A stretch of DNA of 64,000 nucleotides from Bacteroidota bacterium (GTDB lineage Bacteria; Bacteroidota; Bacteroidia; SXHM01): contig CANJWH010000010.1 in assembly GCA_947478465.1 (NCBI GenBank), positions 991-64,990 of the forward strand, in the 5' to 3' direction. The notes beneath the pieces are model-generated. The model was not told the DNA's origin and searched no databases. It saw nothing but the letters and a program-made list of their open reading frames with translations. Position numbers and translations under genes: made by a program. Positions 2,450 through 64,000 of this stretch are shown piece after piece; the first letter of the stretch is position 1, and each line of letters begins with the position of its first letter.

Positions 2450-3715
2450 ATGGATACACAGGGATATTTGGATATGGAGTTGTTGCGTTTTACAACCGCA
2501 GGTTCAGTTGATGATGGCAAAAGCACACTCATCGGAAGATTATTATATGATTCGAAATCAATTTTTGAAGACCAGTTAGATGCTGTAAAAGCAAGCAGCG
2601 AAAAAAAAGGATTGCAGCATGTTGATCTTTCACTTTTAACAGATGGCTTGCGAGCCGAGCGTGAACAGGGAATAACTATAGATGTTGCGTATCGCTACTT
2701 TGCAACACCTAAACGCAAATTCATTATTGCCGATACGCCCGGACATATTCAGTACACGCGCAATATGATTACAGGCGCATCAACTGCCAACCTTGCGCTG
2801 ATTTTAATTGATGCACGGAAAGGTGTGATTGAGCAAACCTGTCGCCATTCATTCATAGCATCGTTGCTAAAAATTCCACATTTGATTGTATGTGTAAACA
2901 AAATGGATTTAGTGGATTATAGTGAAGAAGTTTACAACCGCATTGTTGATGAATACAAAAAATTTGCTGCGCATCTCGATGTTAAGGATATTGAGTTTGT
3001 ACCAATCTCTGCGTTGCATGGCGATAATGTAGTTGACCGTTCCACTAACATGGATTGGTTCAAAGGTTCACCACTTTTAAATACGCTGGAAAATGTACAT
3101 ATCGGCAGTGACTGGAATCATGAAGATGCGCGGTTTCCGGTTCAATATGTTATTCGACCCCATACAGATGCGTTCCATGATTACCGCGGCTATGCCGGAA
3201 GAATTGCCGGAGGAGTTTTTAAACCGGGTGATGAAGTTGTTGCACTTCCTTCGGGCTTTACATCAAAAATAAAATCCATTGCAACGTTGGATGGAGATTT
3301 GTATGAGGCTTTCGCACCGATGTCAGTTTCTATTACGTTGGAAGATGAGATAGACATTAGTCGCGGTGATATGCTTGTAAAAAAAGGAAATCAACCTGAA
3401 AACACACAAGACGTGGATGCAATGTTATGCTGGCTCAATAATAAGTCGCCACAACCCGGTGCAAAATATTTTTTGAAACACACCAGCAATGATGCTCGTG
3501 CTGTTATCAAAGAAATAAATTACAAGGTTGACATCAACACACTTAATAAACAGGAAGAAGACAAGAGTGTGAAAATGAATGATATTTTCCATGCACGTTT
3601 ACGCACCACCAAGCCCTTATTCACAGACAGCTACAACCTTAACCGTATTACCGGAAGCCTTATTCTTATTGACGAAGGCACCAACGAAACAGTGGCCGCG
3701 GGAATGATTCAGTAA
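2450..3715 (+). CDS. cysN: sulfate adenylyltransferase subunit 1 (GTPase)
   Basis: LLRFTTAGSVDDGKSTLIGRLL G1 motif, DTPGH and NKMD GTPase motifs. ATG at 2450 lies 2 nt after the cysD stop; the ORF-track start at 2393 is an in-frame upstream alternative. Confidence 0.9.
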   Translation: MDTQGYLDMELLRFTTAGSVDDGKSTLIGRLLYDSKSIFEDQLDAVKASSEKKGLQHVDLSLLTDGLRAEREQGITIDVAYRYFATPKRKFIIADTPGHIQYTRNMITGASTANLALILIDARKGVIEQTCRHSFIASLLKIPHLIVCVNKMDLVDYSEEVYNRIVDEYKKFAAHLDVKDIEFVPISALHGDNVVDRSTNMDWFKGSPLLNTLENVHIGSDWNHEDARFPVQYVIRPHTDAFHDYRGYAGRIAGGVFKPGDEVVALPSGFTSKIKSIATLDGDLYEAFAPMSVSITLEDEIDISRGDMLVKKGNQPENTQDVDAMLCWLNNKSPQPGAKYFLKHTSNDARAVIKEINYKVDINTLNKQEEDKSVKMNDIFHARLRTTKPLFTDSYNLNRITGSLILIDEGTNETVAAGMIQ

Positions 3716-8344: not shown

Positions 8345-9439
8345 ATGGGAATGAAAAATAATTACGTTGTAATAATGGCAGGCGGGGTAGGAACAAGGTT
8401 CTGGCCTATGAGCCGCACTCCGCACCCAAAGCAATTTCTGGATGTGTTGGGAACAGGTAAAACACTAATACAACAGACCTACGATCGTTTTCAAAAAGTT
8501 TGTCCGCCAGAAAATATTTTTGTGGTAACCAATGAAAGTTACCGTGAACTGGTAAAGGAGCAACTACCTGCTCTTACCAGCGAACAAATCATTTGCGAAC
8601 CAAGTCGCAAGAATACTGCTCCCTGTGTAGCTTATGCTGCTTTTCGCCTCAGCTCTATAAACCCTGATGCGAATATGGTGGTGGCCCCTTCAGACCATCT
8701 TATTCTTAATACCGAAGGTTTTGTGAGTGTTATCAATAAAGCACTGGAAACAACGGCAAAGTATAATGTGTTATGTACGCTTGGAATAAAACCTTCGCGC
8801 CCTGATACCGGTTACGGATACATTCAGTTTAACGAACAGGAATTTTTAAACGGAAGTGGCGAGGTAAGAAAAGTAAAAACTTTTACCGAAAAGCCTGACC
8901 TTGATATGGCAAAGCAATTTCTTGCCAGCGGTGATTTTTTATGGAATTCAGGAATTTTTATCTGGTCTGCAAAAAGTATTCTTAGCGCTTTCCGTGACCA
9001 TTCCAGTGAGATGTTTCAGGTTTTTGGCGAAGGAAAAACACTTTACGGAACACCTGGCGAAGAAGCATTTATTAAAAAAGCATATACCGTTTGCAAAAAT
9101 ATTTCCATTGACTATGCCGTAATGGAAAAAGCAAAAAACGTTTACGTTCTGTCTGCAGACATCGGCTGGAGCGACCTCGGGACATGGGGTTCACTCTATG
9201 AATATGCTGATAAAAATTCAGACGGAAATACCATCATCGGAAAAAATGTGGTGGTTTACGATACCAAAAACTGTATTGTTAATGTTCCTAAAGAAAAGTT
9301 AGTTGTATTAGAAGGACTGGAAGACTATATAGTAGTTGAGTCTGACGGAATACTATTGATTTGCCGTAAAACAGAAGAGCAGAAAATCAAGTTGATTGTA
9401 AATGATGTTACAATCTCTAAAGGCGAAAAGTTCGTTTAA
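8345..9439 (+). CDS. mannose-1-phosphate guanylyltransferase
   Basis: MAGGVGTRFWPMSRTPHPKQFL nucleotidyltransferase motif. 364 aa without an isomerase domain, i.e. ManC-type. Confidence 0.85.
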   Translation: MGMKNNYVVIMAGGVGTRFWPMSRTPHPKQFLDVLGTGKTLIQQTYDRFQKVCPPENIFVVTNESYRELVKEQLPALTSEQIICEPSRKNTAPCVAYAAFRLSSINPDANMVVAPSDHLILNTEGFVSVINKALETTAKYNVLCTLGIKPSRPDTGYGYIQFNEQEFLNGSGEVRKVKTFTEKPDLDMAKQFLASGDFLWNSGIFIWSAKSILSAFRDHSSEMFQVFGEGKTLYGTPGEEAFIKKAYTVCKNISIDYAVMEKAKNVYVLSADIGWSDLGTWGSLYEYADKNSDGNTIIGKNVVVYDTKNCIVNVPKEKLVVLEGLEDYIVVESDGILLICRKTEEQKIKLIVNDVTISKGEKFV

Positions 9440-9444
9440 TTTCT

Positions 9445-9504
9445 CGTTACCCTGAACTTGCTTCAGGGCCTATTCTGAGATGCTGAAACAAGTTCAGCAT
9501 GACG
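9445..9504. repeat. palindromic intergenic repeat element, copy 1 (family CGTCAcccTGAACTTGTTTCAG-spacer-CTGAAACAAGTTCAGCATGACG)
   Basis: Sequence cgttaccctgaacttgcttcagggcc...gatgctgaaacaagttcagcatgacg sits between two convergent genes. The two arms are inverted copies, and each arm can also fold as its own hairpin. Confidence 0.8.
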
Positions 9505-9509
9505 TAATG

Positions 9510-10259
9510 TTAGTTTGTAAACTTCTTATACTGATCATCCACCGCCTTATCTACAGGCAGCAAAATTTTCCCGAACATAATTATTGCTTTTGCTGAGTCG
9601 GCATAGCTTTGGTCTTTTAACAGGTTTGAATAATTTACAAACGCATCAGAAAGTGACGCTTCAATAAGTTTTGGGGCTCTGTAAGTTCCTTCCTGTGCGC
9701 TTTTTTCTAGCTGAGGCATTGCATCGTTCAGGCTTTTGTAGGCTTCGCTGCCGTTGCGCATAAGTGCATCACACACACCTTTTACAAACAAAAGCTCAAA
9801 ATTATCGGGGTCAAGTTTTACCAATGGTTTGTAGTAATAAGATGATGCTTTGCTGTAGTCTTTTTTATCAACCAATGCTTTTGCTTCTTCCAGACAAGTC
9901 TGGCGAAGTTTGTCTAAGTACTCGCTGTTGTCTTTGTAGAAATTTAATTCTTTGTCATAGGTTTTCATTTTCACTGCATACTTCAGTGCATCTTTTAAAG
10001 CTGATTTGTAATACTCTTTTATTTTGGCGTCTTCAGAGAAATGGAACTCATAATAACACATGCTGATGTAGAGATAAGGCTCGGGATTTTTTGCATATTT
10101 CTCGCTTTCAGTATAGGTCTCGGCTTTATAGGCGCAGTCTTCAAACTTTCCTTTATCATAAAGTTCTTCAAGTTTAATCAATTCCCCACCGATTACTTGT
10201 GCTGATAATTTAGAAGTAATAAGTATGATGCAGGATGCAATTGTAAAAATGTATTTCAT
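9510..10259 (-). CDS. hypothetical secreted protein
   Basis: Signal peptide, Lys/Tyr-rich, helical-repeat-like. No recognisable catalytic motif. Confidence 0.55.
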   Translation of the reverse strand: MKYIFTIASCIILITSKLSAQVIGGELIKLEELYDKGKFEDCAYKAETYTESEKYAKNPEPYLYISMCYYEFHFSEDAKIKEYYKSALKDALKYAVKMKTYDKELNFYKDNSEYLDKLRQTCLEEAKALVDKKDYSKASSYYYKPLVKLDPDNFELLFVKGVCDALMRNGSEAYKSLNDAMPQLEKSAQEGTYRAPKLIEASLSDAFVNYSNLLKDQSYADSAKAIIMFGKILLPVDKAVDDQYKKFTN

Positions 10260-22246: not shown

Positions 22247-22247
22247 C

Positions 22248-22311
22248 CCGTCACCCTGAACTTGTTTCAGGGTCTCACAAATCAAGATGCTGAAACAAGT
22301 TCAGCATGACG
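22248..22311. repeat. palindromic intergenic repeat element, copy 2
   Basis: ccgtcaccctgaacttgtttcagggtctcacaaatcaagatgctgaaacaagttcagcatgacg. Its right arm supplies the spurious ATG at 22306. Confidence 0.85.
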
Positions 22312-22323
22312 AAACAAATAAAT

Positions 22324-23403
22324 ATGGACAAATTACTCTTTACCCCCGGACCTTTAACCACCAGCAAAACAGTTAAAGAAGCCATGCTTCACGATTATGG
22401 TTCGCGCGATTCAAAATTTGTAAACATGGTTCGCGAAGTGCGTGACAAACTTTTGACTCTTGCAGGAGTTTCAAAAGAAAAAGGATATGAAACAGTTATT
22501 GTACAAGGCTCCGGAACATTTGGAATTGAGGCAACTATTTCTTCCTCTGTTCCGCGAGATGGACATTTGCTGATTGTTATCAATGGCGCCTACGGCCATC
22601 GTATGGCTAAAATTTGCAGCGTGCATGGAATAAAACACACTTCACTTGTTTTTGCAGAAAATGAAATTCCAACTATTGAGAAAACAGAAGCTGCCCTGAA
22701 AGACGACAGCAGCATAACACATCTCGCTATTGTTCACAGCGAAACCACCACAGGGATTTTTAACCCGATAAATGAGTTTGGTGCACTTGCCGCAAAGTAT
22801 AGCAAGACTTATATTGTTGATGCCATGAGCAGTTTTGGTGCTGTTCCTGTAAATGTTGCTGAGTTTAATATTGACTTTCTGGTTTCTTCTTCCAACAAGT
22901 GCATTGAAGGAGTTCCCGGTTTTTCTTTCATCATTTCCAAACGTGAAAAATTGATGCAGTGTAAAGGACAAGCAAGAAGTCTTGTGCTTGATATTTTTGC
23001 TCAATGGGAAGGCTTGGAAAATGACGGGCAGTTCCGTTTTACACCACCTACTCATAGCCTTGCAGCTTTTCACAAAGCGCTTGAAGAATTAGAAGTGGAG
23101 GGAGGGGTTTCTGCCCGCTCTGTCCGTTACAAAGAAAATTATCAAACGCTTATTTCAGGAATGCGCAAACTGGGCTTTAAAGAATACCTTGAACCCGAAA
23201 AACAAGGCTATATCATTACATCTTTCTTATATCCGTCAGCAGGTTTTAACTTTAAAGAGTTCTATAATTCACTAAACGAAAAAGGTTTTGTCATTTATCC
23301 GGGCAAACTAACTCAGGCTGATGCATTCCGAATTGGGAATATTGGTCAGCTGTACAAAAAAGATATGGAGGCTTTATTACAAGCGATAGAATCGCTCTTA
23401 TAA
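22324..23403 (+). CDS. class V aminotransferase (AGXT/PhnW-like; serine-pyruvate or 2-aminoethylphosphonate-pyruvate transaminase family)
   Basis: N-terminus LLFTPGPLTTS is typical of the AGXT/PhnW family; about 360 aa. Start moved from 22306 to 22324 because 22306 lies inside the repeat element. Confidence 0.78.
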   Translation: MDKLLFTPGPLTTSKTVKEAMLHDYGSRDSKFVNMVREVRDKLLTLAGVSKEKGYETVIVQGSGTFGIEATISSSVPRDGHLLIVINGAYGHRMAKICSVHGIKHTSLVFAENEIPTIEKTEAALKDDSSITHLAIVHSETTTGIFNPINEFGALAAKYSKTYIVDAMSSFGAVPVNVAEFNIDFLVSSSNKCIEGVPGFSFIISKREKLMQCKGQARSLVLDIFAQWEGLENDGQFRFTPPTHSLAAFHKALEELEVEGGVSARSVRYKENYQTLISGMRKLGFKEYLEPEKQGYIITSFLYPSAGFNFKEFYNSLNEKGFVIYPGKLTQADAFRIGNIGQLYKKDMEALLQAIESLL

Positions 23404-29194: not shown

Positions 29195-29197
29195 ATT

Positions 29198-29285
29198 CCG
29201 TCATTCCGAACTTGTTTCGGAATCTCAGATGTTAAACGAAAACAAAAAGGGAGCCGAATTTCGGTTCCCTTTTTGTTTTGTCATA
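29198..29285. repeat. degenerate half-copy of the palindromic element plus a second long hairpin
   Basis: ccgtcattccgaacttgtttcggaatctcagatg is the left arm and spacer only. It is followed by caaaaagggagccgaaatttcggttccctttttg, a 16-bp stem with one mismatch. Confidence 0.6.
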
Positions 29286-29352
29286 ATCCATATCTTTGCA
29301 ACAAAATAACCCTGTAGTTGTTATACTGTTATAAATTTTAAACCAAAATAAA

Positions 29353-31145: not shown

Positions 31146-31904
31146 ATGGAATATTTAATTGAATTTTTTGCAAACGTTGATTTTGAAACAGGGCTTTTTG
31201 TTGTCCTGAATCTGATTATTCTGGAGTGTTTGCTTTCTATTGACAATGCCGCTGTGCTTGCCACTATGGTATTGGATTTACCCGAAAAGCAAAGAGGCAA
31301 AGCATTAAAATATGGAATTATTGGAGCCTATATTTTTCGTGGAGTTTGCCTCATATTTGCTTCTTACCTTATTCAGTTTATGTGGCTCAAAGCGGTGGGC
31401 GGCATTTTCCTGATCTGGTTGTGTGCCGATTATTTTATCACCAAAAAAACACCCGAAACAGAAGACGATTTACTGAACAAAAAAGAAAACCGTTTTTTTA
31501 AATGGATAAATAAACATTTTGGCAAATTCTGGTCAACCGTGGCGTTGATTGAGGTAATGGACTTAGCCTTTTCAATGGACAATGTTTTTGTTGCAGTAGC
31601 TTTTTCTGATAATATTTACCTCATCTGGACTGGCGTTTTTATCGGCATACTGGCCATGCGTTTTGTGGCGCAGGGTTTTGTAAAGTTGCTGGAAAAATTC
31701 CCGGAGCTAACGGCAGTAGCTTTTATTGTTATTGGAATTCTAGGCGTGAAGCTGGTTGCTTCATTTGGTTGCGACTTTTATCCCGAATATGGTTTTTGCC
31801 AATTCCTGAACGGACACAATGCCGACATGATTATATCGGGCTTTACAGTAGTAATGTTTCTTGCGCCTGTAGTTTACAGACTGCTGGTTAAAAGGAATAA
31901 TTAA
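31146..31904 (+). CDS. TerC-family integral membrane protein
   Basis: LSIDNAAVLA and FSMDNVFVA motifs characteristic of TerC/Alx. Confidence 0.8.
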   Translation: MEYLIEFFANVDFETGLFVVLNLIILECLLSIDNAAVLATMVLDLPEKQRGKALKYGIIGAYIFRGVCLIFASYLIQFMWLKAVGGIFLIWLCADYFITKKTPETEDDLLNKKENRFFKWINKHFGKFWSTVALIEVMDLAFSMDNVFVAVAFSDNIYLIWTGVFIGILAMRFVAQGFVKLLEKFPELTAVAFIVIGILGVKLVASFGCDFYPEYGFCQFLNGHNADMIISGFTVVMFLAPVVYRLLVKRNN

Positions 31905-32593
31905 ACCCCAACAGCACTCAGCAATGAGCGGAAAATAAACTGTCCGTCTGTATTGCTCAGCAAAGGATCAGAAGCACGCTCAGGGTGCGGCATCATACCA
32001 AAAACGTTTCTGCCTTCATTACAAACACCTGCAATATTTTCAAACGAACCGTTCGGATTTGCTTCGTCTGTTAACTTTCCGTTCTCATCGCAGTAGCGGA
32101 AAAGAATTTGCTTGTTGGCATTCATCTTTTTCAGCGTGTCGGCATCGGCATAAAATCTTCCTTCTCCGTGCGCAATAGGTATTTTCAATGCTTTGGTTAA
32201 AGGAATTTCAGCGGTAATTAATGAGTCGTTTGTTTCAGCTTTTATAAAAACATTTTTGCAGATAAACTTATGACTGGTATTATGAAGCAATGCTCCCGGA
32301 ACCAAATGCGCCTCGCACAAAATCTGAAAACCGTTGCAAACGCCCAACAGGTAACCACCTGCATTGGCATGTTCAATCACCTTTTCCATAATAGGTGAAA
32401 AACGCGCAATAGCTCCCGAACGCAGATAATCACCGTAAGAAAAACCTCCGGGAAGCACAATAAAATCGCAGCCTTTCAGGTCTTTGTCTTTGTGCCACAG
32501 TTCTTCAACTTGCTGTCCCATACCGTTGCGCAGGGTATAAATCATATCCTGATCGCAATTAGAGCCTGGAAATATTACAACGCCAAATTTCAT
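31901..32593 (-). CDS. purQ: phosphoribosylformylglycinamidine synthase subunit PurQ (glutaminase)
   Basis: [23 protein letters not shown] (catalytic Cys) and MMPHPER motifs. The internal start at 32593 is used instead of 32644, which would add an atypical 17-aa extension. Confidence 0.85.
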
Positions 32594-32786
32594 TTTTCTG
32601 ATAATTTTAGTCCGCAAATTTATCGTTTTAAAAATAGTTGCCACAGATTACACCGTTTTTCACAAATTAATCTGTGCTAATCTCTGTAATTTGTGGCAAA
32701 ATACACTGTTTTCAACTATTCGTCTAAAGCAGGTAACTAAATAGATAATCATCAGTAAAACGTCTTTGATAAAATTGAATCGCCAA

Positions 32787-33713: not shown

Positions 33714-33725
33714 AAATAATTAGCC

Positions 33726-33787
33726 CCGTCACCCTGAACTTGTTTCAGGGTCTCATGATAAGATGCTGAAACGAGTTCAGCATGACG
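33726..33787. repeat. palindromic intergenic repeat element, copy 3
   Basis: ccgtcaccctgaacttgtttcagggtctcatgataagatgctgaaacgagttcagcatgacg, followed by a hairpin gaggtcctttattaaaggactttttt. Confidence 0.85.
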
Positions 33788-33837
33788 AAAAAATTCCGTT
33801 CCTTTGAGGTCCTTTATTAAAGGACTTTTTTATTGTT

Positions 33838-39837: not shown

Positions 39838-39842
39838 TCGTA

Positions 39843-39904
39843 CCGTCACACTGAACTTGTTTCAGGGTCTTTCTATTGAGATGTTGAAACAAGTTCAGCA
39901 TCAC
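39843..39904. repeat. palindromic intergenic repeat element, copy 4
   Basis: ccgtcacactgaacttgtttcagggtctttctattgagatgttgaaacaagttcagcatcac. Confidence 0.85.
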
Positions 39905-39962
39905 TTTATATCCACATTTTAATAATTCCACTTAATTTTACACTAAACTAAAACCTAAAACC

Positions 39963-53550: not shown

Positions 53551-56500
53551 TTATTGCAGAACCGTTACATTTCCTGTATTGCTAAATCTTCCGTCTTCGT
53601 GTTCCATGCCTTCCCATTGTGTTCCATCCATAAAGGTTGCATCTGCTTTCCAGATATAAGCACCCTGTGGAACAACCACACCATTGTATCTTCCATCCCA
53701 GCTTTCAACAGGTTTGCCATCAATTAACTTACTCGATTCCCAGAGCAGGTTACCCCATTTATCAAATATCATACAGTGGTAAGTTGCTACACCAATACCT
53801 TTTGGCAGGAAGTATCCGAAGTCGCCATCACCACCAACAATCAATGCATTAGGCATAAACAATCCTTTGAAAAGTTCCACTTCAACAGTTTGAGTAATGG
53901 TATCTGAACATCCTGCACCGCTGTAAGCAATCAGTGTTACATCAAACTCACCGTTGTCTGAATAATTGTTTATCGGATCTGTAAGTGTTGATGTTTGTCC
54001 GTCACCAAAATCCCAATCGTACGTTGTTGCACCTGTTGAAAGGTTGGTGAACTGAATTTGTCCGTCAGGGTCAACTACATTGAAATAATCGGAAGTGAAA
54101 TCTGCTACCGGGGTTTGCAACACTGTTACAGCAGAAGTGAGTTCGAGTGTATCGTTACAGATGCCGCCTCCACTTACTACCAATGTTACATCGTATGTTC
54201 CGGGAATTTCATAAGTGTGTGAAGGGTTGCTGAGCATTGAAGTATCACCATCACCAAAGCTCCAGTAGTAGGTAACACCGTCAACTGAATTGTTTGTGAA
54301 GGTCACCGTGTAAGGAGCACAACCTGAGTTTCCGCTCAACGCGAACGATGCAGTAGGTGCAGGATAAACATTGTAAACGTAATCCGAAGTATCTATGCAA
54401 CCACTTGCAGAAGTTGCAGTCAACACAACTGTATAAGTTCCGGTAGTATCAAAACTTGCTTGTCCGTTAGTAGTTGTTGCATTAGTTCCGTTTCCGAAGT
54501 TCCATGAATATGAAACAGCATTTGTTGAAGTATTAGTAAAATCAACTGTTACCGGATAAGTGCAGGAGTAAGTATTTGTAGAAGGCACTGTGAATGCAGC
54601 TACCGGAGGTGCGCTGATTGTTACGGTTACACTGTCCTGAGTTCCTACACAACCAAGTCCATCAGTTACAGTTACTACATACGTTGTAGGTACCGAAGGC
54701 AATACGATGTGCGAAGCTCCGTTTCCAAGACCATTGTTCCAGCTGTAAGTGTACACACCATTACCGCCTGTTGCGGTTGCAGAAATAGTAATACTGTCCC
54801 CTGCACAAACTACGTTTCCGATGCTGTTTATGTCAGCAACCAATTGTGCCGGCTGACCTATTGTAATTGTTTGCGAAGCAGCGCATCCATTTGCATCTGT
54901 AGCTATCACTATGTAAATTCCTGCAGAAAGACCTGTTGCTGTTGAAGTTGTATTATTACTTGGTGTCCAGTCGTAAGAGTAAGGAGTTGTTCCGCCAGTT
55001 ACAAGAACAGTTGCTGTTCCGTTTACTCCACCAAAGCAGGTAGGTTGTGAACTTCCTATTAAAGAAATTGCCATGTTACCCGGAGCAGAGATGGTAACGG
55101 TTGTGCTGTCTGAACATCCTGCGGCATCAGTTACAATAACTGTATGGCTTCCTGAAGTAAGGTTGGTAGCAGTAGCAGTTGTTTGTCCGTTATCCCAAGC
55201 GTAGTGGTAAGTTGGTGTTCCACCCACAACAGCAACAGTTGCAATACCAGTTGCAGAACCACCGCATGCAGGCTGTACAATGTTTGAAATAGTTAAATCA
55301 AGTGCAGCAGGTTCGCTCACAGTAAATGAAAGTTGAAGTGCGCAACCAGTAGAGTCGGTAATATTTACTGAATAGTCACCTGCCAGAAGATTTGTTGCTG
55401 GAACTGTAGTTTGTCCGTTACTCCAAGCATAAGTATATGGAGTATTTCCACCGGCAATGTTAAAGCTGATGCTTCCATTGTTTTCACCATTGCAGGTTAC
55501 ATTGTTTACATCCACATCTCCGGCTGAAAGAACTGCATTTTCGGTAATTACAAAGTTTACAATGGTGATACATTGATTGGCATCACGGATAGTGACAGAG
55601 TGCAATCCGGCCGGCAAATCTGAAACAGTTTGAGTTGTTTGACCATTATCCCAAACGTAGGTATAGCCCGGAATACCACCTGAAACGTTTATAGAAGCCG
55701 ATCCTGTAGCGCCACCTGCACAACCAACATTTACCTGGTTTTCAATAAACGCAGACATTGGTGAAGGCTGTGTGATGACTAAACTTAAAGAAGTATCGCA
55801 ACCACTTGCATCAGTAATCTGAACAGAGTATTCACCTGCGCCAACACCATTCAAATCATGAGTGGTTGCACCGTTAGACCATAAGAAAGTATATGGAGCA
55901 GTTCCGCCAATTACATTAATGAAGCCAGCGCCATTGCTTCCTCCGTTGCAAGTTACATTTAGTATATCAAGAATTGTTGCAGTTAAACTTGGTGGCTCTG
56001 TAATGTCAGCAAAAACAGTTTGTGAGCAACCATTTGCATCAACAACTGTTACCTGATGAATTCCAAATGCAAGACCTGTTGCAGTTTGTGTTGTTTGCCC
56101 GTTGGCCCATGAATAAGTGTAAGGAGCTACTCCACCGGTTACGTTTACTGTTGCAGATCCGTTGGCAACTCCTGCGCAGCTTACAGAAGAAGTATTCTCG
56201 ATAACTGCAGTTAATTGCGTAGGATTAACAACCTGAATAGTGTCAGTTGAAGAACAGCCATTAGCATCTGCTGCAGTTACAATATAAGTTCCTGCGAAAA
56301 GATTAGAAGCAACCGAGCCGGTTTGTCCGTTGCTCCAAAGGTAAGTGTAAGGAGCTGTTCCTCCTGAAGGAGTTGCTGTAGCAACACCGTTTCCGGCACC
56401 AAAGCAACTAACATCTTCACTATTGAAATCAGAAGTTACATCAGCACTTACTGTGAGAGTAATAGGGTTAACAATTCCAGCTTGAGTAGTTGTTGTGCAG

Positions 56501-59500
56501 TTGTTAGCATCTGTAACTGTTACATCATAAATACCCTCGGCAAGATTAGTTGCAGTTGCATTTGTTTGTCCGTTCACCCACAAATAAGTGTAAGGAGCAG
56601 TTCCGCCAGTAACAGAAACTGTAGCACTTCCATTGTTATTTCCATTGCATGAAGGCTGAGTAGTTGATGAAATTGTAGCAACCAGTTGCTCTGGCTCATT
56701 CACCACAATGTTTATAGTAGTATCACAACCCAGAGAATCAGCTAATGTGATTGAATATGTTCCTGCAATTAATCCGGAAATATCTTCTGTTGTAGAACCG
56801 TTACTCCAGGAGTATGAGTAAGGAGCAGTTCCACCGGAAGGTGTGATGTCAATAGCTCCGTCATTTCCTCCATTGCAACTTACATCGCTTACAGCAATAT
56901 TATTAGAAGGAATTGCAAGAGGTTGAGGTTCGCCAACTATAACAGTTAAGATTACATTGCATCCGTTGGTATCTGAAACTGTAACGGTATAAGTTCCGGC
57001 AGCAAGACCTGTTGCTGTAGAACCTGTTTGTGTATTTGACCAAAAGTAGAAATATCCCGGAGTTCCACCAGCGGCCTGAACTGTTGCGCTTCCGTTTGCA
57101 ACACCGTTGCATGAAGGTGTAACAATTGAAACAACATCTGCAGTTAAAACCATAGGATCAACTAGTGTTACAGAAACGGTGGTGTCGCAACCGTTAGCAT
57201 CTGTAGAAGTTACAAAGTATGTTCCGGCAGCTAAGTCGGTTGCAAAATAATCTGTTGAACCGTTAGACCATTGGTAAGTGTATCCGGGGGTTCCGCCATT
57301 TACTAAAACTTCTGCCATACCATCAGCATCGCCTGCGCATGATATGTCCGTTCCGTTATAGTCTGAAGTAACTGTAGCGTATGCAATAAGTGGATTAGGT
57401 TCACCAATAAGTACGTTTGTTGATGCAATGCATCCGTTGTTATCGGTTACACTTACAAAGTAAACACCTGCACTTAGGTTTGTAGCAGTAGATGAAGTTT
57501 GTCCATCACTCCACAAATATTGGTATCCGCTTGCACCTCCGGTAGCGTCAACTGTTGCATAACCATCTGCTAAACCACTGCAGCTTACATTATGTTGGTC
57601 TATTAGATTTACTTCCAACAATTCAGGTTCTGTTAAAGTAATGCTGTCATTAATTGAGCATCCGTTTATATCAGTAATGGTTACATAATATGTTCCTGCA
57701 AAAACAAATACCAGATTTTCGTCAGTTGAAGTAAAACCGTTTGGTCCTGTCCATGCATAATTGTAATCAGCACAATCTGCACCACCACTTAAAGCAAGAT
57801 TGATGCTGCCATTATTAGTATTTGCGCAGTTTATGTTCCAGCCTCCTGCATTTACTGGGCTTGTCAGACTATCAACTGTAAGCGGTGTTGGTTCTGTTAA
57901 TGTAATTGAAGTTGTTGCAGTATTTCCAAGCCCATCTGTAACGGTTACGGAATATGTAGTTGCAGAAAGACCGGTAGCAACTTGTGAAGTTTGTCCGTTG
58001 CTCCATAAGTAAGAATAAGGCATGCATCCACCGGCAGGCAATGCGGTTGCAGTTCCATTATTTCCTCCCGGACAAGTAATATTAAATCCACAGCTAAATG
58101 TATCAGCAACTGCAGAAACTAACAAAGGATTTGCAAGAACAGTTATGTCAAATGAACAGGTTGTTGTATTTCCTGAAGCATCAATTGCTGTGTATGTTAC
58201 AGTTGTTGTTCCAACAGGGAAGCTGTTTCCTGACTGGAAGTTACTGGTCAATGAGGTAACCGCACAGTTGTCAGTAGCAATTGGCGTATTCCATGTAGCA
58301 TAAGGATTGCAATTTGAACTGTCAGGTTGAATTACAATATCAGCAGGACACAAGGTAAATTCAGGTGCAATGTTATCCACTACCGTTATAGTTGAGAAAC
58401 AATTGTCTGAATTTCCATTCACATCCGTAACAGTAAGTGTTACCAGATTTTCGCCAACATTTCCGCAGTTGAAAGATGAAACAGAAATTATCATTGTATC
58501 AATTCCGCATGCATCAGTTGAGCCGTTATCAATTTGTGCAGCGGTGATTGAAATTACTCCATTAGAGTCAAGAGCAACAGTAATATTTTGACAAATTGCA
58601 TTAGGATTGGTTGCATCGACAACTGTAACAGTTGAAGAGCAGGTAGCAACATTTCCGTTGAGGTCAGTAACAGTTAAAGTAACAGTATTAGAGCCAACAT
58701 TTGAGCAGTCAAATGTATTTGGAGAAACTGTCATTGAAGCAATTCCGCATGCGTCTGAAGAACCGTTATCAACCTGTGAAGAAACGATTGAAATATTTCC
58801 TGTTCCGTCTAAATCAATTGTAATATCGCGGCAGATTGCAATTGGATCAACATTATCCTGCACTGTTACAGTTGATATACAGGTTGAAACATTTCCATTA
58901 ACATCAGTCACAGTTAATGTTACAGAATTAGTTCCTATACCAGCGCAAGTAAAGGTGTTAGGGTTCACAGTCATTGTTGCAATTCCGCAGTTGTCAGATG
59001 AACCATTATTTACCTGTGAAGAATCGATTGTTACCTGTCCGTTTGCATCCAACTGAACCGTGATGTCTTGACAAATTGCAATCGGATCTATCTCGTCATT
59101 AATAGTAACTGTTGCTGTGCAAGAAGAAGAGTTTCCGAAAGCGTCTGTAACAGTTAAAGTCACAGTATTTGCACCAACGTTTGAGCAATCAAAATTGGTT
59201 TCACTTACGCTGTATGTTAAGCCATTGTTAGGAGTTGAGCAGTTGTCGAACGAACCATTGTCAACCTCAACAGCAGTAATAACAGCGTTTCCGTTTGCAT
59301 CTAACTGTACTGTTATGTTTTGACAAATAACAGTTGGTGAAACAGTATCGGTAATTGTAACAACAGCATCGCATGAAGAAGAATTTCCGTTAGCATCAGT
59401 TACGGTTAATGTTACTGTGTTGGCTCCGATGTTTGAGCAATCAAAATTAGTTTGACTTGCAGTGTAAATTAAGCCTGAACCTGAATTAGAGCAGTTGTCA

Positions 59501-62500
59501 GTAGTTCCGTTATCTAAGTCAATACCAGTTATAACAACGTTTCCGTTTGCATCCAAAGCAACCGTAATATTCTGACAAACGATAGTTGGATTAATGGTAT
59601 CCTGAACAGTTACAACAGCTGTGCAGGTTGAAATATTTCCGGAGTTATCGGTAGCAGTTAATGTTACAGTATTAGTTCCAACATTTGAACAATCAAATGC
59701 AGAAGGCGAAACAGTAAGTGAAGCAATTCCGCAGGCAGCGTTTGTTCCGCCATCAACTTGTGCAGCTGTAATAATTACGTTTCCGGTTGCATCTAATTGA
59801 ACCGTGATGTCCTGGCAAACTGCAGCAGGCGCAACATTATTCTCAACTGTAACAATGGCTGTGCAGGTTGAAGAATTTCCGTATGCATCTGTAACAGTTA
59901 AGATAACTGTATTAATACCTTCATCTGTGCAATCAAATGTTGTTTGACTTGCTGTGAATGTTAATCCTGAATTGATGTCCGAACAATTATCTGTTGAACC
60001 ACCATCAATATCAATTGCACTGATTGTAACGTTTCCATTTGCATCTAACTGAACGGTAATATTCTGACAGATTGCAACAGGAGAAACAGTATCAGAAACC
60101 GTAACTATTGCATCGCATGAAGATGAATTTCCATAAGCATCAGTTACTGTTAAAGTAATTGTATTTGCACCGATGTTTGAACAATCAAATGAAGTTTGAC
60201 TTGCGCTGAATGTTAATCCTGAGCCCGAAGTTGAGCAGTTATCACTTGAACCGTTGTCAATGTCAGTAGCAACAGTTACTACATTTCCGTTTGCATCTAA
60301 CTGAACTATGATGTTCTGACAGATTACTGTTGGGTTTGTGTCATCCTGAATTGTTACTGTTGCACTGCACGTAGAAGAATTTCCATTGTTATCAGTTACA
60401 GTTAATGTTACCGTGTTTGCACCAATATTTGAGCAATCAAATGCTGAAGGAGAAACTGTCATTGAAGCAATTCCGCATGCATCAGAAGAATTGTTGTTTA
60501 CCTGAGCAGCAGTGATAACAGCATTTCCATTTGCATCTAAGTTTACAGTTATGTTCTGACAAATTGCAATTGGAGCCGTGTTATCCTGAACAGTAACGAT
60601 TGCTGTGCAGGTAGAAATATTTCCATGATTATCGGTTACAGTTAAAGTAACAGTGTTAGTTCCAACATTTGAACACGTGAATGATGAAGGAGAAACTGAA
60701 AGCGAAGCAATTCCGCATGCATCTGAAGAACCATTGTCAATTTGTGCTGCTGTGATAGAAGCAATACCCGCAGCGTTCAGTTGAACAGTGATATTCTGAC
60801 ATTGAGCAATCGGAGCAACATGATCCTGAATAGTAACAATAGCTGAGCAGGTTGCTGTGTTTCCGCTTTGGTCAGTAACAGTTAAGGTTACAGTATTTGC
60901 TCCTATGTTAGAGCAATTAAATGAAGAAGGATTAACACTTAATGTAACTGGTCCGCACTGGTCGCCTGAACCGTTATCAACCTGTGCCGCAGTAATGGTT
61001 GCATTCCCGTTTGCATCCAGTTGAACAGTAATGTTACGACAAAGTGCAATAGGAGGGTTGTTGTCTAAAACAGTAACAGTTGCTGTGCATGTGCTTTGAT
61101 TTCCGTTGTTATCAATTACTGTTAATGTTACTGTATTTGCACCAACATTCGCACAAGTAAATGTTGAAGGCGAAACACTCATTGCAGCAATCCCACAGTT
61201 GTCAAAAGAACCTCCATCCACATCAACAGGAAGAATGGAAATATTTCCGGTTGCATCTAACTGAACAGTTATGTTCTGACAGATTGCAGTTGGAGGTGTG
61301 CTTGCATTATCCTGTACTGTTATTGTTGCTGTGCAGGTAGAAACATTTCCGTTTACATCAGTAACAGTAAGTGTTACTGTATTTGCGCCAACATTTAAAC
61401 AGTTGAAAGTAATTTGCGGCTGTCCGTTAATAGCGATGGAAGCAATTCCGCAATTATCATTTGAACCATTATTGATTTGCGCAGCTGTTACAATTACAGA
61501 ACCTGTTTGGTCTAACTGAACAGTTATGTTCTGACAGATTGCAATAGGATCTACATTATCCTCAACCGTAACCGTAGCAGTGCATGAAGAAACATTTCCG
61601 TTTACATCTGTAACTGTTAATGTAACTGTATTTACTCCAACGTTTGCACAGCTGAAAGCAACCTGTTTTTGACCATTAATGGTTGATGAACCAATTCCGC
61701 ATGCATCGCTGGAAGCACCGGTAACCTGCGAATCTGTAACAATAACAATTCCATTTGAATCAAGTTCAACAATTATATTCTGACAAATGACTACAGGTGC
61801 AATTGTATCTTCAACAGTAACATTTGCAAGGCATGTAGAACTGTTTCCGCTAAGGTCGGTAACAGTTAAAGTAACCGTGTTAAGTCCAACATTTGAACAA
61901 TTAAATGTATTAGGAGAAACCGAAAGAGATGCAATTCCGCAATTATCAAAAGAACCGCCATCAACATCTGCAGCAACAATAGAAGCATTTCCTGTAGCAT
62001 CAAGCTGCACAGTTATATTCTGACAGATAGCTGTAGGTGGTGTGCTTGTATTATCAACAACTGTAATAGTTGCATTGCAGGTAGAAGTATTTCCATTCAC
62101 ATCAGTAACAGTAAGTGTTACTGTATTTGCACCAACATTTAAACAGTTGAAAGTAATTTGCGGTTGTCCGTTAATAGCGATGGAAGCAATTCCGCAATTA
62201 TCATTTGAACCATTATTGATTTGCGCAGCTGTTACAATTACAGAACCTGTTTGGTCTAACTGAACAGTTATGTTCTGACATATTGCATTCGGGTTAATAT
62301 TGTCTTGAACAGTTACAGTAGCATTACAAGTAGAAACATTTCCGTTTATATCTGTTACAGTAAGTGTTACCGTATTAGCTCCAACATTTGCACAGGTAAA
62401 CGTGTTTGGCGAAACGGATATGGATGCAATACCGCACGCATCTGAGCTTCCGTTGTTAACCTGTGCTGCTGCTACTGAAGCATTACCACCTGCGTTTAAC

Positions 62501-64000
62501 TGAACTGTTACGTTATGACAAAGTGCAACCGGTGGAGTAACATCAACAACAGTTACTGTTGCATTACATGAAGATGAATTTCCATTATTGTCAGTAACAG
62601 TTAGAGTTACTGAATTTGCACCAACATTCACACATGTAAATGAAGAAGGTGTAACAGACATTGAAGCAATACCACATGCATCAGAGCTTCCGTTGTTTAT
62701 TTGTGAGGCAGTAATTGTTGCTGTTCCTGCAGCATTCAAATTAATGCTGATGTTTTGACAAATGGCAACAGGATTTGTATTGTCAACGACAGTTACAGTA
62801 GCAGTGCATACAGAAGTATTTCCATTAACATCAGTAACTGTAAGTGTAACGGTGTTTGCTCCAACATTTGCGCACGTAAACGAAGAAGGTGAAACAGATA
62901 TTGAAGCAATACCACAGGCATCACTGCTGTTGTTATTTATCTGTGAAGCAGTAATTGAGGCTTTACCTGCAGCACTTAAATTAACAGTAATATTCTGGCA
63001 ATTTGCTACAGGAGCAACAATGTCCTGGACAGTAACGGTAGCATTACAGGTTGAAACATTTCCATGAATATCTGTTACGGTAAGCGTAACTGTATTAGCT
63101 CCTACATTTGCACAATTGAATGAACTTGGTGAAACATTTACTGATGCAATACCGCATGCATCCGAACTTCCGTTATTTATTTGTGATGCTGTGATGGATA
63201 CATTTCCTAAAGAGTTTAACTGAACTGTAATATTCTGACAAATCGCAGTTGGAGGTGTAACATCTGCAACTGTAACAACAGCATTGCAGGTTGAAGAATT
63301 TCCATGTATATCAGTTACAGTTAAGGTTACAGTATTAGCGCCAATATTTGCACATGTGAATGTTGACGGAGAAACTGAAAGGGATGCAATACCGCAAGCA
63401 TCAGTGGAGCCGTTATTTATTTGTGCTGCTGTAATCGAAACAGTTCCTGCTGAATTGAGATTAACACTTATATTTTGACAAACAGCAACAGGATTTGTGT
63501 TGTCAACAACGGTAACAGTAGCATTGCAGGTTGAAGAATTTCCGTTTACATCAGTAACTGTAAGTGTAACGGTGTTTGCTCCGACATTAGCACAAGTAAA
63601 AGAAGAAGGAGAAACAGAAATAGAAGCAATACCGCAAGCATCAGATGAGCCGTTGTTTACCTGTGAAGCATTAATGGAAATATTTCCTGTAGCATCAAGG
63701 TCAACAGTAATGTTCTGACAAACTGCAACAGGATTAATGTTATCTACTACAGTAACAGTAGCAGAGCAGGTAGAAACATTTCCGTTCACATCTGTAACAG
63801 TTAATGTTACAGGATTAGGTCCAACACCGGCACATGTAAACGAAGATGGGTTAACGGTCATGGATGCAATTCCGCATGCATCAGAACTACCGTTATTAAT
63901 CTGTGCTGCTGTTATAGTAACATTTCCTGCTGCATTTAACTGAGCTGTAATATTCTGGCAAAGAGCAGTTGGAGGAGTAATATCAGCAATGGTAACAGTA
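53551..64000 (-). CDS. giant SprB-like cell-surface adhesin, partial (5' end beyond window): HYR-like repeats + SprB repeats + PKD-like domains + type-B T9SS CTD
   Basis: One continuous minus-strand frame longer than 10.4 kb that stays open to the window edge. More than 25 repeats of about 80 aa (PVAICQNITVQLDANGN...SSDACGIAS...FTCANVGANTVTLTVTDVNGNSSTC), one canonical HYR (CPADIVIQPD...ATDNCAV...TCSFDITV), about 13 SprB-type repeats and PKD-like segments. The C-terminus (...KWGNLLWES...GAYIWKADA...) is a gliding-motility-type CTD. Confidence 0.85.
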   Translation of the reverse strand, partial: TVTIADITPPTALCQNITAQLNAAGNVTITAAQINNGSSDACGIASMTVNPSSFTCAGVGPNPVTLTVTDVNGNVSTCSATVTVVDNINPVAVCQNITVDLDATGNISINASQVNNGSSDACGIASISVSPSSFTCANVGANTVTLTVTDVNGNSSTCNATVTVVDNTNPVAVCQNISVNLNSAGTVSITAAQINNGSTDACGIASLSVSPSTFTCANIGANTVTLTVTDIHGNSSTCNAVVTVADVTPPTAICQNITVQLNSLGNVSITASQINNGSSDACGIASVNVSPSSFNCANVGANTVTLTVTDIHGNVSTCNATVTVQDIVAPVANCQNITVNLSAAGKASITASQINNNSSDACGIASISVSPSSFTCANVGANTVTLTVTDVNGNTSVCTATVTVVDNTNPVAICQNISINLNAAGTATITASQINNGSSDACGIASMSVTPSSFTCVNVGANSVTLTVTDNNGNSSSCNATVTVVDVTPPVALCHNVTVQLNAGGNASVAAAQVNNGSSDACGIASISVSPNTFTCANVGANTVTLTVTDINGNVSTCNATVTVQDNINPNAICQNITVQLDQTGSVIVTAAQINNGSNDNCGIASIAINGQPQITFNCLNVGANTVTLTVTDVNGNTSTCNATITVVDNTSTPPTAICQNITVQLDATGNASIVAADVDGGSFDNCGIASLSVSPNTFNCSNVGLNTVTLTVTDLSGNSSTCLANVTVEDTIAPVVICQNIIVELDSNGIVIVTDSQVTGASSDACGIGSSTINGQKQVAFSCANVGVNTVTLTVTDVNGNVSSCTATVTVEDNVDPIAICQNITVQLDQTGSVIVTAAQINNGSNDNCGIASIAINGQPQITFNCLNVGANTVTLTVTDVNGNVSTCTATITVQDNASTPPTAICQNITVQLDATGNISILPVDVDGGSFDNCGIAAMSVSPSTFTCANVGANTVTLTVIDNNGNQSTCTATVTVLDNNPPIALCRNITVQLDANGNATITAAQVDNGSGDQCGPVTLSVNPSSFNCSNIGANTVTLTVTDQSGNTATCSAIVTIQDHVAPIAQCQNITVQLNAAGIASITAAQIDNGSSDACGIASLSVSPSSFTCSNVGTNTVTLTVTDNHGNISTCTAIVTVQDNTAPIAICQNITVNLDANGNAVITAAQVNNNSSDACGIASMTVSPSAFDCSNIGANTVTLTVTDNNGNSSTCSATVTIQDDTNPTVICQNIIVQLDANGNVVTVATDIDNGSSDNCSTSGSGLTFSASQTSFDCSNIGANTITLTVTDAYGNSSSCDAIVTVSDTVSPVAICQNITVQLDANGNVTISAIDIDGGSTDNCSDINSGLTFTASQTTFDCTDEGINTVILTVTDAYGNSSTCTAIVTVENNVAPAAVCQDITVQLDATGNVIITAAQVDGGTNAACGIASLTVSPSAFDCSNVGTNTVTLTATDNSGNISTCTAVVTVQDTINPTIVCQNITVALDANGNVVITGIDLDNGTTDNCSNSGSGLIYTASQTNFDCSNIGANTVTLTVTDANGNSSSCDAVVTITDTVSPTVICQNITVQLDANGNAVITAVEVDNGSFDNCSTPNNGLTYSVSETNFDCSNVGANTVTLTVTDAFGNSSSCTATVTINDEIDPIAICQDITVQLDANGQVTIDSSQVNNGSSDNCGIATMTVNPNTFTCAGIGTNSVTLTVTDVNGNVSTCISTVTVQDNVDPIAICRDITIDLDGTGNISIVSSQVDNGSSDACGIASMTVSPNTFDCSNVGSNTVTLTVTDLNGNVATCSSTVTVVDATNPNAICQNITVALDSNGVISITAAQIDNGSTDACGIDTMIISVSSFNCGNVGENLVTLTVTDVNGNSDNCFSTITVVDNIAPEFTLCPADIVIQPDSSNCNPYATWNTPIATDNCAVTSLTSNFQSGNSFPVGTTTVTYTAIDASGNTTTCSFDITVLANPLLVSAVADTFSCGFNITCPGGNNGTATALPAGGCMPYSYLWSNGQTSQVATGLSATTYSVTVTDGLGNTATTSITLTEPTPLTVDSLTSPVNAGGWNINCANTNNGSINLALSGGADCADYNYAWTGPNGFTSTDENLVFVFAGTYYVTITDINGCSINDSITLTEPELLEVNLIDQHNVSCSGLADGYATVDATGGASGYQYLWSDGQTSSTATNLSAGVYFVSVTDNNGCIASTNVLIGEPNPLIAYATVTSDYNGTDISCAGDADGMAEVLVNGGTPGYTYQWSNGSTDYFATDLAAGTYFVTSTDANGCDTTVSVTLVDPMVLTADVVSIVTPSCNGVANGSATVQAAGGTPGYFYFWSNTQTGSTATGLAAGTYTVTVSDTNGCNVILTVIVGEPQPLAIPSNNIAVSDVSCNGGNDGAIDITPSGGTAPYSYSWSNGSTTEDISGLIAGTYSITLADSLGCDTTINIVVNEPEQLVATISSTTQPSCNGNNNGSATVSVTGGTAPYTYLWVNGQTNATATNLAEGIYDVTVTDANNCTTTTQAGIVNPITLTVSADVTSDFNSEDVSCFGAGNGVATATPSGGTAPYTYLWSNGQTGSVASNLFAGTYIVTAADANGCSSTDTIQVVNPTQLTAVIENTSSVSCAGVANGSATVNVTGGVAPYTYSWANGQTTQTATGLAFGIHQVTVVDANGCSQTVFADITEPPSLTATILDILNVTCNGGSNGAGFINVIGGTAPYTFLWSNGATTHDLNGVGAGEYSVQITDASGCDTSLSLVITQPSPMSAFIENQVNVGCAGGATGSASINVSGGIPGYTYVWDNGQTTQTVSDLPAGLHSVTIRDANQCITIVNFVITENAVLSAGDVDVNNVTCNGENNGSISFNIAGGNTPYTYAWSNGQTTVPATNLLAGDYSVNITDSTGCALQLSFTVSEPAALDLTISNIVQPACGGSATGIATVAVVGGTPTYHYAWDNGQTTATATNLTSGSHTVIVTDAAGCSDSTTVTISAPGNMAISLIGSSQPTCFGGVNGTATVLVTGGTTPYSYDWTPSNNTTSTATGLSAGIYIVIATDANGCAASQTITIGQPAQLVADINSIGNVVCAGDSITISATATGGNGVYTYSWNNGLGNGASHIVLPSVPTTYVVTVTDGLGCVGTQDSVTVTISAPPVAAFTVPSTNTYSCTYPVTVDFTNTSTNAVSYSWNFGNGTNATTTNGQASFDTTGTYTVVLTATSASGCIDTSDYVYNVYPAPTASFALSGNSGCAPYTVTFTNNSVDGVTYYWSFGDGDTSMLSNPSHTYEIPGTYDVTLVVSGGGICNDTLELTSAVTVLQTPVADFTSDYFNVVDPDGQIQFTNLSTGATTYDWDFGDGQTSTLTDPINNYSDNGEFDVTLIAYSGAGCSDTITQTVEVELFKGLFMPNALIVGGDGDFGYFLPKGIGVATYHCMIFDKWGNLLWESSKLIDGKPVESWDGRYNGVVVPQGAYIWKADATFMDGTQWEGMEHEDGRFSNTGNVTVLQ

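Follow-up and report, generated by a model that had tools for sequence, protein, structure and literature searches.

CGTC-tagged REP units downstream of genes in a Bacteroidota genome: anatomy, host distribution and variable occupancy of orthologous sites

Repeat units and neighbouring genes in the window

The 64-kb stretch of Bacteroidota DNA analysed for the current report (the window, taken at its full length), which comes from an uncultured Bacteroidia lineage, carries nine copies of a short hairpin-forming repeat unit, which are arranged as four inverted pairs, or dimers, and one singlet. When a covariance model of the single unit was run over the whole window with filters off, the nine units scored 32-49 bits, and since the next match scored only 12.8 bits, the list of five sites drawn up in an earlier, sequence-only reading of this DNA, each of which was confirmed at the same coordinates, proved to be complete. 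The units have a clear polarity, because the opposite strand at the nine unit sites yielded only ~10 bits with the same model. When up to 2 mismatches are tolerated, the 15-mer CTGAACTTGTTTCAG from the arm is found 9 times where 0.27 occurrences would be expected, and none of 100 shuffles reached 9. The units and two separate hairpins that lie downstream of them are as follows.

9445..9472, + strand: left arm REP unit of dimer 1, 35.2 bits (model span 9443-9474); degenerate tag CGTT, stem ACCCTGAA, loop CTTGC, tail CTA
9477..9504, - strand: right arm REP unit of dimer 1, 48.9 bits (model span 9475-9506); tag CGTC, stem ATGCTGAA, loop CTTGT, tail CTC
22249..22276, + strand: left arm REP unit of dimer 2, 47.1 bits (model span 22247-22278); CGTC-ACCCTGAA-CTTGT-TTCAGGGT-CTC
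22284..22311, - strand: right arm REP unit of dimer 2, 47.1 bits (model span 22282-22313); CGTC-ATGCTGAA-CTTGT-TTCAGCAT-CTT
29199..29226, + strand: single REP unit, 46.2 bits (model span 29197-29228); CGTC-ATTCCGAA-CTTGT-TTCGGAAT-CTC
29243..29280, + strand: separate intrinsic-terminator-like hairpin aaaaagggagccgaatttcggttccctttttgtttt, read from the sequence, downstream of the singlet
33727..33754, + strand: left arm REP unit of dimer 3, ACCCT stem, 48.0 bits (model span 33725-33756)
33760..33787, - strand: right arm REP unit of dimer 3, ATGCT stem, loop CTCGT, 46.3 bits (model span 33758-33789)
33806..33832, + strand: separate intrinsic terminator, GAGGTCCTTTATTAAAGGACTTT plus T-run (hairpin 33806-33828), downstream of dimer 3
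39844..39871, + strand: left arm REP unit of dimer 4, stem ACACT with one mismatch, 41.4 bits (model span 39842-39873)
39878..39905, - strand: right arm REP unit of dimer 4, 32.2 bits (model span 39876-39907)

All five copies (the four dimers and the singlet) begin 1-13 nt past the stop codon of an upstream gene on the + strand, as had been proposed when they were described as lying immediately 3' of a gene, and the labels given to those five genes at the time also hold.

9445 dimer: ManC-like nucleotidyl transferase gene, stop at 9439
22248 dimer: 2-hydroxyacid dehydrogenase gene, identified via the related locus L122; dimer starts 2 nt past the stop (22246)
29199 singlet: gene for a Por_Secre_tail (type IX secretion signal) protein; singlet starts 4 nt past the stop (29194)
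33726 dimer: MORN-repeat protein gene; dimer starts 13 nt past the stop (33713)
39843 dimer: MTHFR gene (metF); dimer starts 6 nt past the stop (39837)

The 9445 dimer sits between convergent genes, namely the ManC-like gene (for whose product an exact-protein look-up returned no identical protein on record) and a minus-strand ORF that ends at 9510. The right arm of dimer 2 ends 12 nt ahead of the ATG (22324) of a class-V aminotransferase gene, and one window copy lies within a 77-nt gap separating two same-strand genes. The hairpin at 29243..29280 is conserved in the relative L209 and was not flagged by a simple terminator scan; the terminator at 33806..33832 is retained in relatives that do not carry dimer 3. 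Because terminators lie downstream of two copies and a third copy lies between same-strand genes, the units are located in 3' UTRs or intercistronic RNA. The idea that the elements serve as bidirectional terminators is weakened by the same arrangement. For two of the five copies, each with a separate canonical terminator of its own downstream, the element is ruled out as the terminator, and a further copy is the one in the 77-nt intergenic gap.

Anatomy and folding of the unit

The window unit is 28 nt long. Its unpaired tag CGTC is followed by an 8-bp stem with the 5-nt loop CTTGT, and the tail, also unpaired, reads CTC or CTT; in its broader form the unit has the tag YGTC, the 8-bp stem A-[T/C]-N-C-Y-G-A-A with the 3' half TTCRGN[AG]T, the loop CTTGT and the unpaired tail CTN. 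The tag is CGTC in seven of the nine window units, CGTT in one and AGTG in one, and the stems found are ATGCTGAA, ATTCCGAA and ACCCTGAA. The + arm of every dimer carries the stem ACCCTGAA, or in dimer 4 ACACTGAA, and the - arm carries ATGCTGAA; the tags point outward and the tails face each other (HH). The spacer between arms, which had been given as 15-20 nt, has that length when counted from the end of a shorter arm, and measures 4-7 nt from tail end to tail end. What had been taken for a degenerate half at 29198 is instead an intact single unit, with a third stem that is fully compensated (ATTCCGAA/TTCGGAAT), and not a decayed copy. Decay is seen in the right arm of dimer 4, where the tag has mutated to AGTG and the stem contains a mismatch; L211 has an intact orthologue of this copy.

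In the predicted minimum-energy fold a dimer forms a single long hairpin, which is interrupted by a small internal loop at the positions that differ between its stems. The energies of this hairpin as RNA are -24.5 to -35.6 kcal/mol, with z-scores of -4 to -9.7, and two separate hairpins per dimer would have -13.7 to -20.3 kcal/mol. The two alternative folds that had been proposed for these elements, one long hairpin or each arm on its own, are thus both possible by predicted energies, with the long hairpin as the minimum.

Membership in a known repeat family

The window elements almost certainly belong to the superfamily of CGTC-tagged REPs that was described by Di Nocera, De Gregorio and Rocco (BMC Genomics 2013; PMC3733652). 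According to that paper, CGTC REPs have a terminal unpaired tag, CGTC, often TGTC and also CCTC; a stem of 8 bp in families 1 and 2 and of 9 bp in families 3 and 4, which almost always starts with A-T; a loop of 4 nt in family 1 and of 5 nt in families 2-4, with few major sequence types; and an unpaired 3-nt tail that in most cases fits CCA. They occur mainly as HH dimers (tags outside), with TT dimers rare and HT dimers negligible, and heterodimers predominate in families CGTC-2 and CGTC-3. Most are located between unidirectional or convergent genes, near the upstream stop codon; some are intragenic and divergent locations are rare. The paper also reports no transposase gene flanked by CGTC units, proposes that the cognate "REPtron" of these repeats has been lost, and names hosts in the Bacteroidetes, Chlorobi, Spirochaetes and Alphaproteobacteria, with five phyla in all (Gramella forsetii, two Chlorobi, Turneriella, Novosphingobium aromaticivorans and Sphingopyxis alaskensis are among the hosts named). 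Later surveys of Y1 transposases include the CGTC paper in their reference lists only and assign no enzyme to CGTC repeats.

Because of their 8-bp stem and 5-nt loop, the window elements key out as family CGTC-2, an assignment made by the stem and loop rule stated in PMC3733652 and not by comparison of consensus sequences. The strain in which that paper describes CGTC-2 is N. aromaticivorans DSM 12444, and on plasmid pNL2 of this strain an HH dimer with both of the window stems closely follows a stop codon: CGTC-ACCCTGAA-CCTGT-TTCAGGGT-CCA ... CGTC-ATGCTGAA-CATGT-TTCAGCAT-CCA. The identification with a known family rests on this sharing of both stems with the reference strain and on the match in tag, stem, loop, dimer type and position. 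In comparison with CGTC-2 as published, the tag, the 8-bp stem with its A-T start, the 5-nt loop, the 3-nt length of the tail and the HH heterodimers are the same, as are the positions past stop codons, the occasional intragenic copies and the lack of a flanked transposase gene, and the host genera overlap (Novosphingobium, Sphingopyxis, Gramella/Christiangramia, Treponema-type spirochaetes and relatives of the Chlorobi). There are also differences. The tail is CTN in the window and in most non-proteobacterial hosts, whereas the published consensus is CCA; only homodimers of CGTC-2 are described for N. aromaticivorans in the paper, whereas the pNL2 copy is a stem heterodimer; and the five phyla reported fall far short of the host range found here. 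The sequence-only reading, which did not recall this family as having been described, was wrong on that point. Correspondence to a known repeat family, which it had itself named as the outcome that would count against it, was found, and the claim of novelty therefore falls. Its structural view of the elements as REP- or BIME-like was right, in that the arms are self-standing hairpins and the copies lie 3' of genes.

REPINs, the doublets of GTAG-tagged REPs that are mobilised by RAYT transposases (Bertels and Rainey 2011; Nunvar et al. 2010), resemble the window dimers in being inverted hairpin doublets with a short spacer that fold into a long hairpin, in having the doublet as the unit of gain and loss, in occurring as singlets too, and in their intergenic positions 3' of genes. 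Membership in such a REPIN/RAYT system was considered and failed, the window tag being CGTC and not GTAG and no flanked RAYT being known or found (window plus at least 120 loci); in addition, a GTAG REP family is typically restricted to one genus or species, whereas the CGTC unit is near-identical across phyla. The BIMEs of E. coli, with their Y and Z REP (PU) units, share with CGTC-2 the use of two alternating inverted unit types and, at loci L022 and L073 of our distribution scan, the formation of arrays with conserved linkers; their sequences, however, are unrelated, and the window contains simple dimers and one singlet instead of arrays. An origin as DDE-derived MITEs was rejected, since no direct repeats flank the dimers at the sites where filled and empty versions could be compared, no parent IS was found, and the arms are self-folding instead of simple terminal inverted repeats. 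Rfam gave no match at the elements at the gathering threshold, its only match in the window being one tRNA; the permissive Rfam matches (tp2, AaHKsRNA41 and plant miRNA precursors) were set aside as generic long hairpins far below the cut-off, and a literature search with sequence strings found unrelated primer matches only.

Distribution across phyla, plasmids and viruses

A scan with the pattern GTCANNCYGAACTTGTTTCRGNNTCT, using one genome per species, provided at least 120 loci. Among the matches listed are members of the Bacteroidota, Ignavibacteria, Rhodothermales, Spirochaetes (Treponema), Melainabacteria, Elusimicrobia, several Patescibacteria/CPR groups, Nitrospirota/Thermodesulfovibrionia, Nitrospinota, Dadabacteria and Alphaproteobacteria (Sphingomonadales and Rhodospirillales), together with one Nanoarchaeota bin. 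The 28-nt unit was also found on plasmids of Sphingobium, Novosphingobium, Sphingomonas and Treponema, and on 79 viral contigs.

The tags of 214 units from the listed loci include TGTC in 104 cases and CGTC in 81. The tails at these loci, which are partly forced by the search pattern, are CTC (71), CTA (56), CTG (36), CTT (33) and CCA (5); CCA is seen in Novosphingobium, Treponema and pNL2 copies. Adjacent pairs across the listed loci are HH in 46 cases, TT in 14 and HT in 5 (HH versus TT, p = 4e-5), and 39 of the 46 HH pairs are heterodimers; homodimers of the unit occur in Novosphingobium and Sphingopyxis MAGs. Tandem arrays of the BIME type, in which two unit types alternate with conserved linkers, were seen at L022, with an 82-bp period, and at L073, with 11 units. 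The contexts of the listed loci are unidirectional in 64 cases, convergent in 22 and divergent in 8, so that divergent contexts are depleted relative to their 24% share of intergenic length (p = 1e-4). In other phyla some units are intragenic, as in the inter-domain linker of GltB and in an HsdM gene.

Covariation of the stem

The stem covaries under clear structural selection. In an alignment of 92 distinct units from the listed loci and the window, 96.9% of the stem cells are in standard pairs, and 87 stem cells have changed on both sides against 22.8 in shuffles, with none of 500 shuffles reaching 87; when the 3' partners are shifted along the alignment by one to three columns, the pairing drops to 21-56%. 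The first stem pair is A-U in 86 of the 92 units, the second is U-A in 67, C-G in 13 and A-U in 7, and the third is C-G in 38, G-C in 27 and U-A in 15. The near-invariant parts are the tag, the G-A-A/U-U-C top of the stem and the loop, several positions of which were fixed by the search pattern. For that reason, 62 partner hairpins near the seeds were collected without any sequence constraint. Tags of YGTC or AGTC are found in 43 of these 62, a stem start of AT or AC in 48 and CTN tails in 37, and their loops include TTTAT, CTTGA, CTCGT and CTGGT.

Filled and empty orthologous sites

Presence or absence was compared between orthologous sites of relatives for four of the window sites (the singlet and three of the dimers). 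The elements of the window recur in near-identical MAG contigs, and the empty sites come from relatives more distant than these. The MAG GCA_022072225.1 contains none of the units in 21 kb of orthologous sequence. The occupancy of the four sites is as follows, with relatives given by our locus handles.

22248 dimer: present in the window and L122; absent from L129 (93% aa identity in the neighbouring aminotransferase), L130 and L131/L134
33726 dimer: present in the window, L121-L125 and L211 (92% CysS identity); absent from L209/L210 (96% CysS identity), L212 and L214/L215
39843 dimer: present in the window, L121, L123-L125 and L211; absent from L209
29199 singlet: present in the window, L121 and L122; absent from L209

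The earlier suggestion that the elements are mobile gains support from this comparison, because each of the four lacks its element in some close relatives. The 33726 site has conserved flanks on either side, and the difference there amounts to the entire dimer; whole units or dimers are therefore what is gained or lost. For the 22248 site, the upstream gene has a conserved end among relatives, and a gap of only 2 nt separates the two genes in L130. In the dimers common to the window and L211 the arms are conserved and the spacer has diverged.

Presence of the elements does not track divergence, since L211 has dimers that are missing from L209, which is closer to the window in CysS identity. 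This pattern of a filled L211 and an empty L209 fits loss at least as well as gain, and on that account the polymorphism could represent deletion of palindromes, for example by replication slippage or by SbcCD, instead of insertion. The comparison of filled and empty sites gave no clean target-site signature at the junctions, where it is unreadable because the flanks have diverged. In two relatives the sequence of the empty MORN-cysS site is YGTCTG|AAAAAATTCC, a hint of GTC at the junction that we treat as a lead only, the other three empty sites being without GTC. As a separate observation, L209 has a different tagged palindrome inserted beside a terminator, together with an 18-bp duplication.

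Search for a mobilising enzyme

A rough phmmer screen with approximate seeds, which covered ORFs of 60 aa or longer from the window and from the 8-kb blocks (~1 Mb) of at least 120 loci, detected no Y1/RAYT-like ORF. Nor did the neighbours of the units contain a unit-specific gene family, the largest cluster, which is not annotated, being represented at 11 of the at least 120 loci. The genes bracketed by two units encode a substrate-binding protein (L059) and a small unknown ORF (L062), neither of which is a transposase. No recombinase or integrated element was seen beside the nine window units, and none recurred among the at least 120 listed loci.

Possible origins of the elements

The reading that we prefer, with about as much confidence as doubt, is that the units represent a non-autonomous hairpin element which is mobilised in trans and lands in 3' UTRs. 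A dimer or a single unit would be a small insertion/deletion module that is gained or lost whole between close relatives and that comes to lie shortly after stop codons, whether in a 3' UTR or between the genes of an operon, where it would mainly be tolerated. The tag, the loop and the stem top are conserved and the stem middle covaries, a pattern which suggests that a protein recognises the folded strand. This candidate protein would act in trans on folded single-stranded DNA, with specificity for both sequence and structure, and might most plausibly be an HUH/Y1-type or other single-strand DNA enzyme. An inserted element would be co-transcribed with the upstream gene and would form a very stable RNA hairpin, which could block 3'-5' exonucleases or slow read-through; this effect would be a by-product, which selection may tolerate or use. 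A further reading, which we regard as possible and rather doubtful, is that CGTC-2 is a single, currently active mobile hairpin, near-identical in more than 10 bacterial phyla (including Patescibacteria/CPR, Melainabacteria, Elusimicrobia, Ignavibacteria, Nitrospirota and Spirochaetes) and present on plasmids and viral contigs as well. If this were true, a widespread trans-acting enzyme, distinct from a flanked RAYT, would recognise the tag, loop and stem top and would insert whole heterodimers just past stop codons, and both the enzyme and its target rule would be directly testable at the polymorphic sites, for which the window and L211 provide filled examples and L209, L212 and L129 empty ones.

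In E. coli, roles of REPs as RNA stabilisers, as attenuators and in the regulation of translation have been shown, and the units described here might similarly be functional RNA elements under selection and not mobile, acting as 3'-UTR stabilisers, read-through attenuators or stop-proximal regulators of translation, with their patchy presence reflecting gain and loss of regulation. We consider this unlikely, in spite of its agreement with the starts 1-13 nt past stop codons, the depletion of divergent intergenic regions, the very stable RNA folds and the two copies that lie between a stop codon and a canonical terminator and are hence in the transcript. That many REPs are transcribed is also argued in PMC3733652. 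The wobble pairs, however, have no strand bias (13 G.T versus 10 A.C, so that G.U is not favoured over A.C on the sense strand) and singlets favour one orientation to their upstream gene only weakly (24 versus 13, p = 0.10), for which reasons we see no sign of selection at the level of RNA; moreover, the unit is found within coding regions in other phyla, close relatives lack the element at all four of the examined sites, and near-identity across phyla is hard to square with independent selection for a generic hairpin.

BIMEs of E. coli bind IHF and gyrase, and the dRS3 repeats of Neisseria are integration sites for prophages. By analogy, immobile units might serve as landing pads for other mobile DNA, such as IS110/IS1111-type recombinases or filamentous prophages, or as binding sites for nucleoid or topology proteins. 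The pattern of conserved tag, loop and stem top with a covarying stem middle, which indicates recognition by protein, would suit this explanation, as would the alternating arrays at L022 and L073 and the different tagged palindrome of L209 with its duplication. We give it little credence, considering that no recombinase or integrated element was seen next to the nine window units or, in recurrent form, at the listed loci, as noted above, and that a pure binding role leaves both the presence or absence of whole dimers and the intragenic copies unexplained. It is less improbable than this, and still quite unlikely in our judgment, that the units are decaying relics of an ancient and extinct mobile family in which all of the present variation is due to loss. 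The lack of any transposase associated with the units, the degenerate state of the 39843 copy and of the left arm at 9445, and the retention by the more distant L211 of dimers that are absent from the closer L209 would all be expected of relics. Most of the window arms are nevertheless near-consensus (46-49 bits), and the arms of orthologous dimers are conserved between the window and L211 where the spacers diverge. Continuing spread fits better than ancient relics with the near-identical units on plasmids, on viral contigs and in many phyla.

Significance of the findings

The repeat family has been known since 2013, and the window is one more host of it and an ordinary one. What is new here is the wider host range, the formal evidence of covariation and the set of filled and empty orthologous sites. 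These three results sharpen the question left by the 2013 authors, namely what makes or moves CGTC REPs, and the filled and empty orthologous pairs are concrete material for experiments or population genomics. The occurrence of a near-identical 28-nt unit in very distant phyla is a second puzzle beside that of mobility.

The units also have consequences for genome annotation, in that they mark 3' UTRs and create spurious small ORFs and false start codons; an example of the latter is the ATG at 22306, which falls within a repeat arm.

Apparent turnover of small hairpins at the 3' ends of genes

In some relatives, intergenic positions that lack a dimer or singlet of CGTC-2 (the 28-nt REP hairpin) carry an unrelated, short G+C-rich hairpin, and the same sites 3' of genes seem to undergo a turnover of small hairpins of differing kinds. 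At the singlet site of L209, a relative with 96% CysS identity, the CGTC-2 unit is missing and a different tagged palindromic dimer, also of the HH arrangement (tags outward), is found there instead. Its sequence reads CGCC-ATTGCGAGGGTTTTTCACCCGAAGCAAT-CTC ... GAG-ATTGCTTCGCTTTGCTCGCAAT-GATG, and flanking it is a direct duplication, 18 bp long, of the terminator's 3' half (cggttcccttttttgttt). This CGCC-tagged dimer may represent a second CGTC-like family, inserted with target duplication.

Hairpins at sites without CGTC-2 units
L131 and L134, orthologous to window 22247-22323 (dimer absent): G+C-rich hairpin CCCTCCCCacagaGGAGGG
L209 ~3225-3260 (singlet absent): G+C-rich hairpin ctctCCaaagaGGaggg
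L209 3200-3527, orthologous to window ~29195-29300: tagged HH dimer

Downstream of dimer 3, the copy that follows the MORN gene, the loop of the intrinsic terminator is interrupted by a 47-bp insert in two of the near-identical MAG contigs, L124 and L125. The insert contains a perfect palindrome (GAGCGTTGTAAAAAATCAGTTTTGATTTTTTACAACGCTC), and its sequence is not related to that of the CGTC units; it occurs in these two contigs as strain variants and is absent from the window and from L121-L123.

Insert in the terminator beyond dimer 3
L124/L125 about 2470-2520, orthologous to window ~33815, in terminator 33806-33828: 47-bp terminator-loop insert

CGTC-2 units and reading frames

The longest ORF for the class-V aminotransferase begins at an ATG (22306) placed inside the dimer's right REP arm (gcATGacg; window 22306-22326). 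The gene calls of relatives and the alignment of orthologues back the ATG at 22324 as the start of this gene. REP arms can generate false start codons.

In other phyla, single CGTC-2 units are found in frame within long ORFs. One lies in a GltB of Treponema, in the linker joining its Glu_synthase domain to its GXGXG domain; another is in an HsdM of Lacinutrix, within its N6_Mtase domain region, and a third sits where the asparagine synthase and F420-ligase parts of an apparent fusion ORF meet.

In-frame CGTC-2 units
L039 5123-5150
L048 3750-3777
L054 5052-5079

Gene content of the window and of L209

The block shared with L209 is otherwise syntenic, but between the TerC and GATase genes L209 (7462-8092) carries additional genes, namely a YHYH/Por_Secre_tail gene and a nucleotidyltransferase/HepT-like pair of the MNT-HEPN toxin-antitoxin type, all of which the window lacks (compared region ~31900-32700). 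The final 10 kb of the window are filled by a single very long ORF.

Long ORF
Window 53551-63861, - strand: very long ORF, 3436 aa
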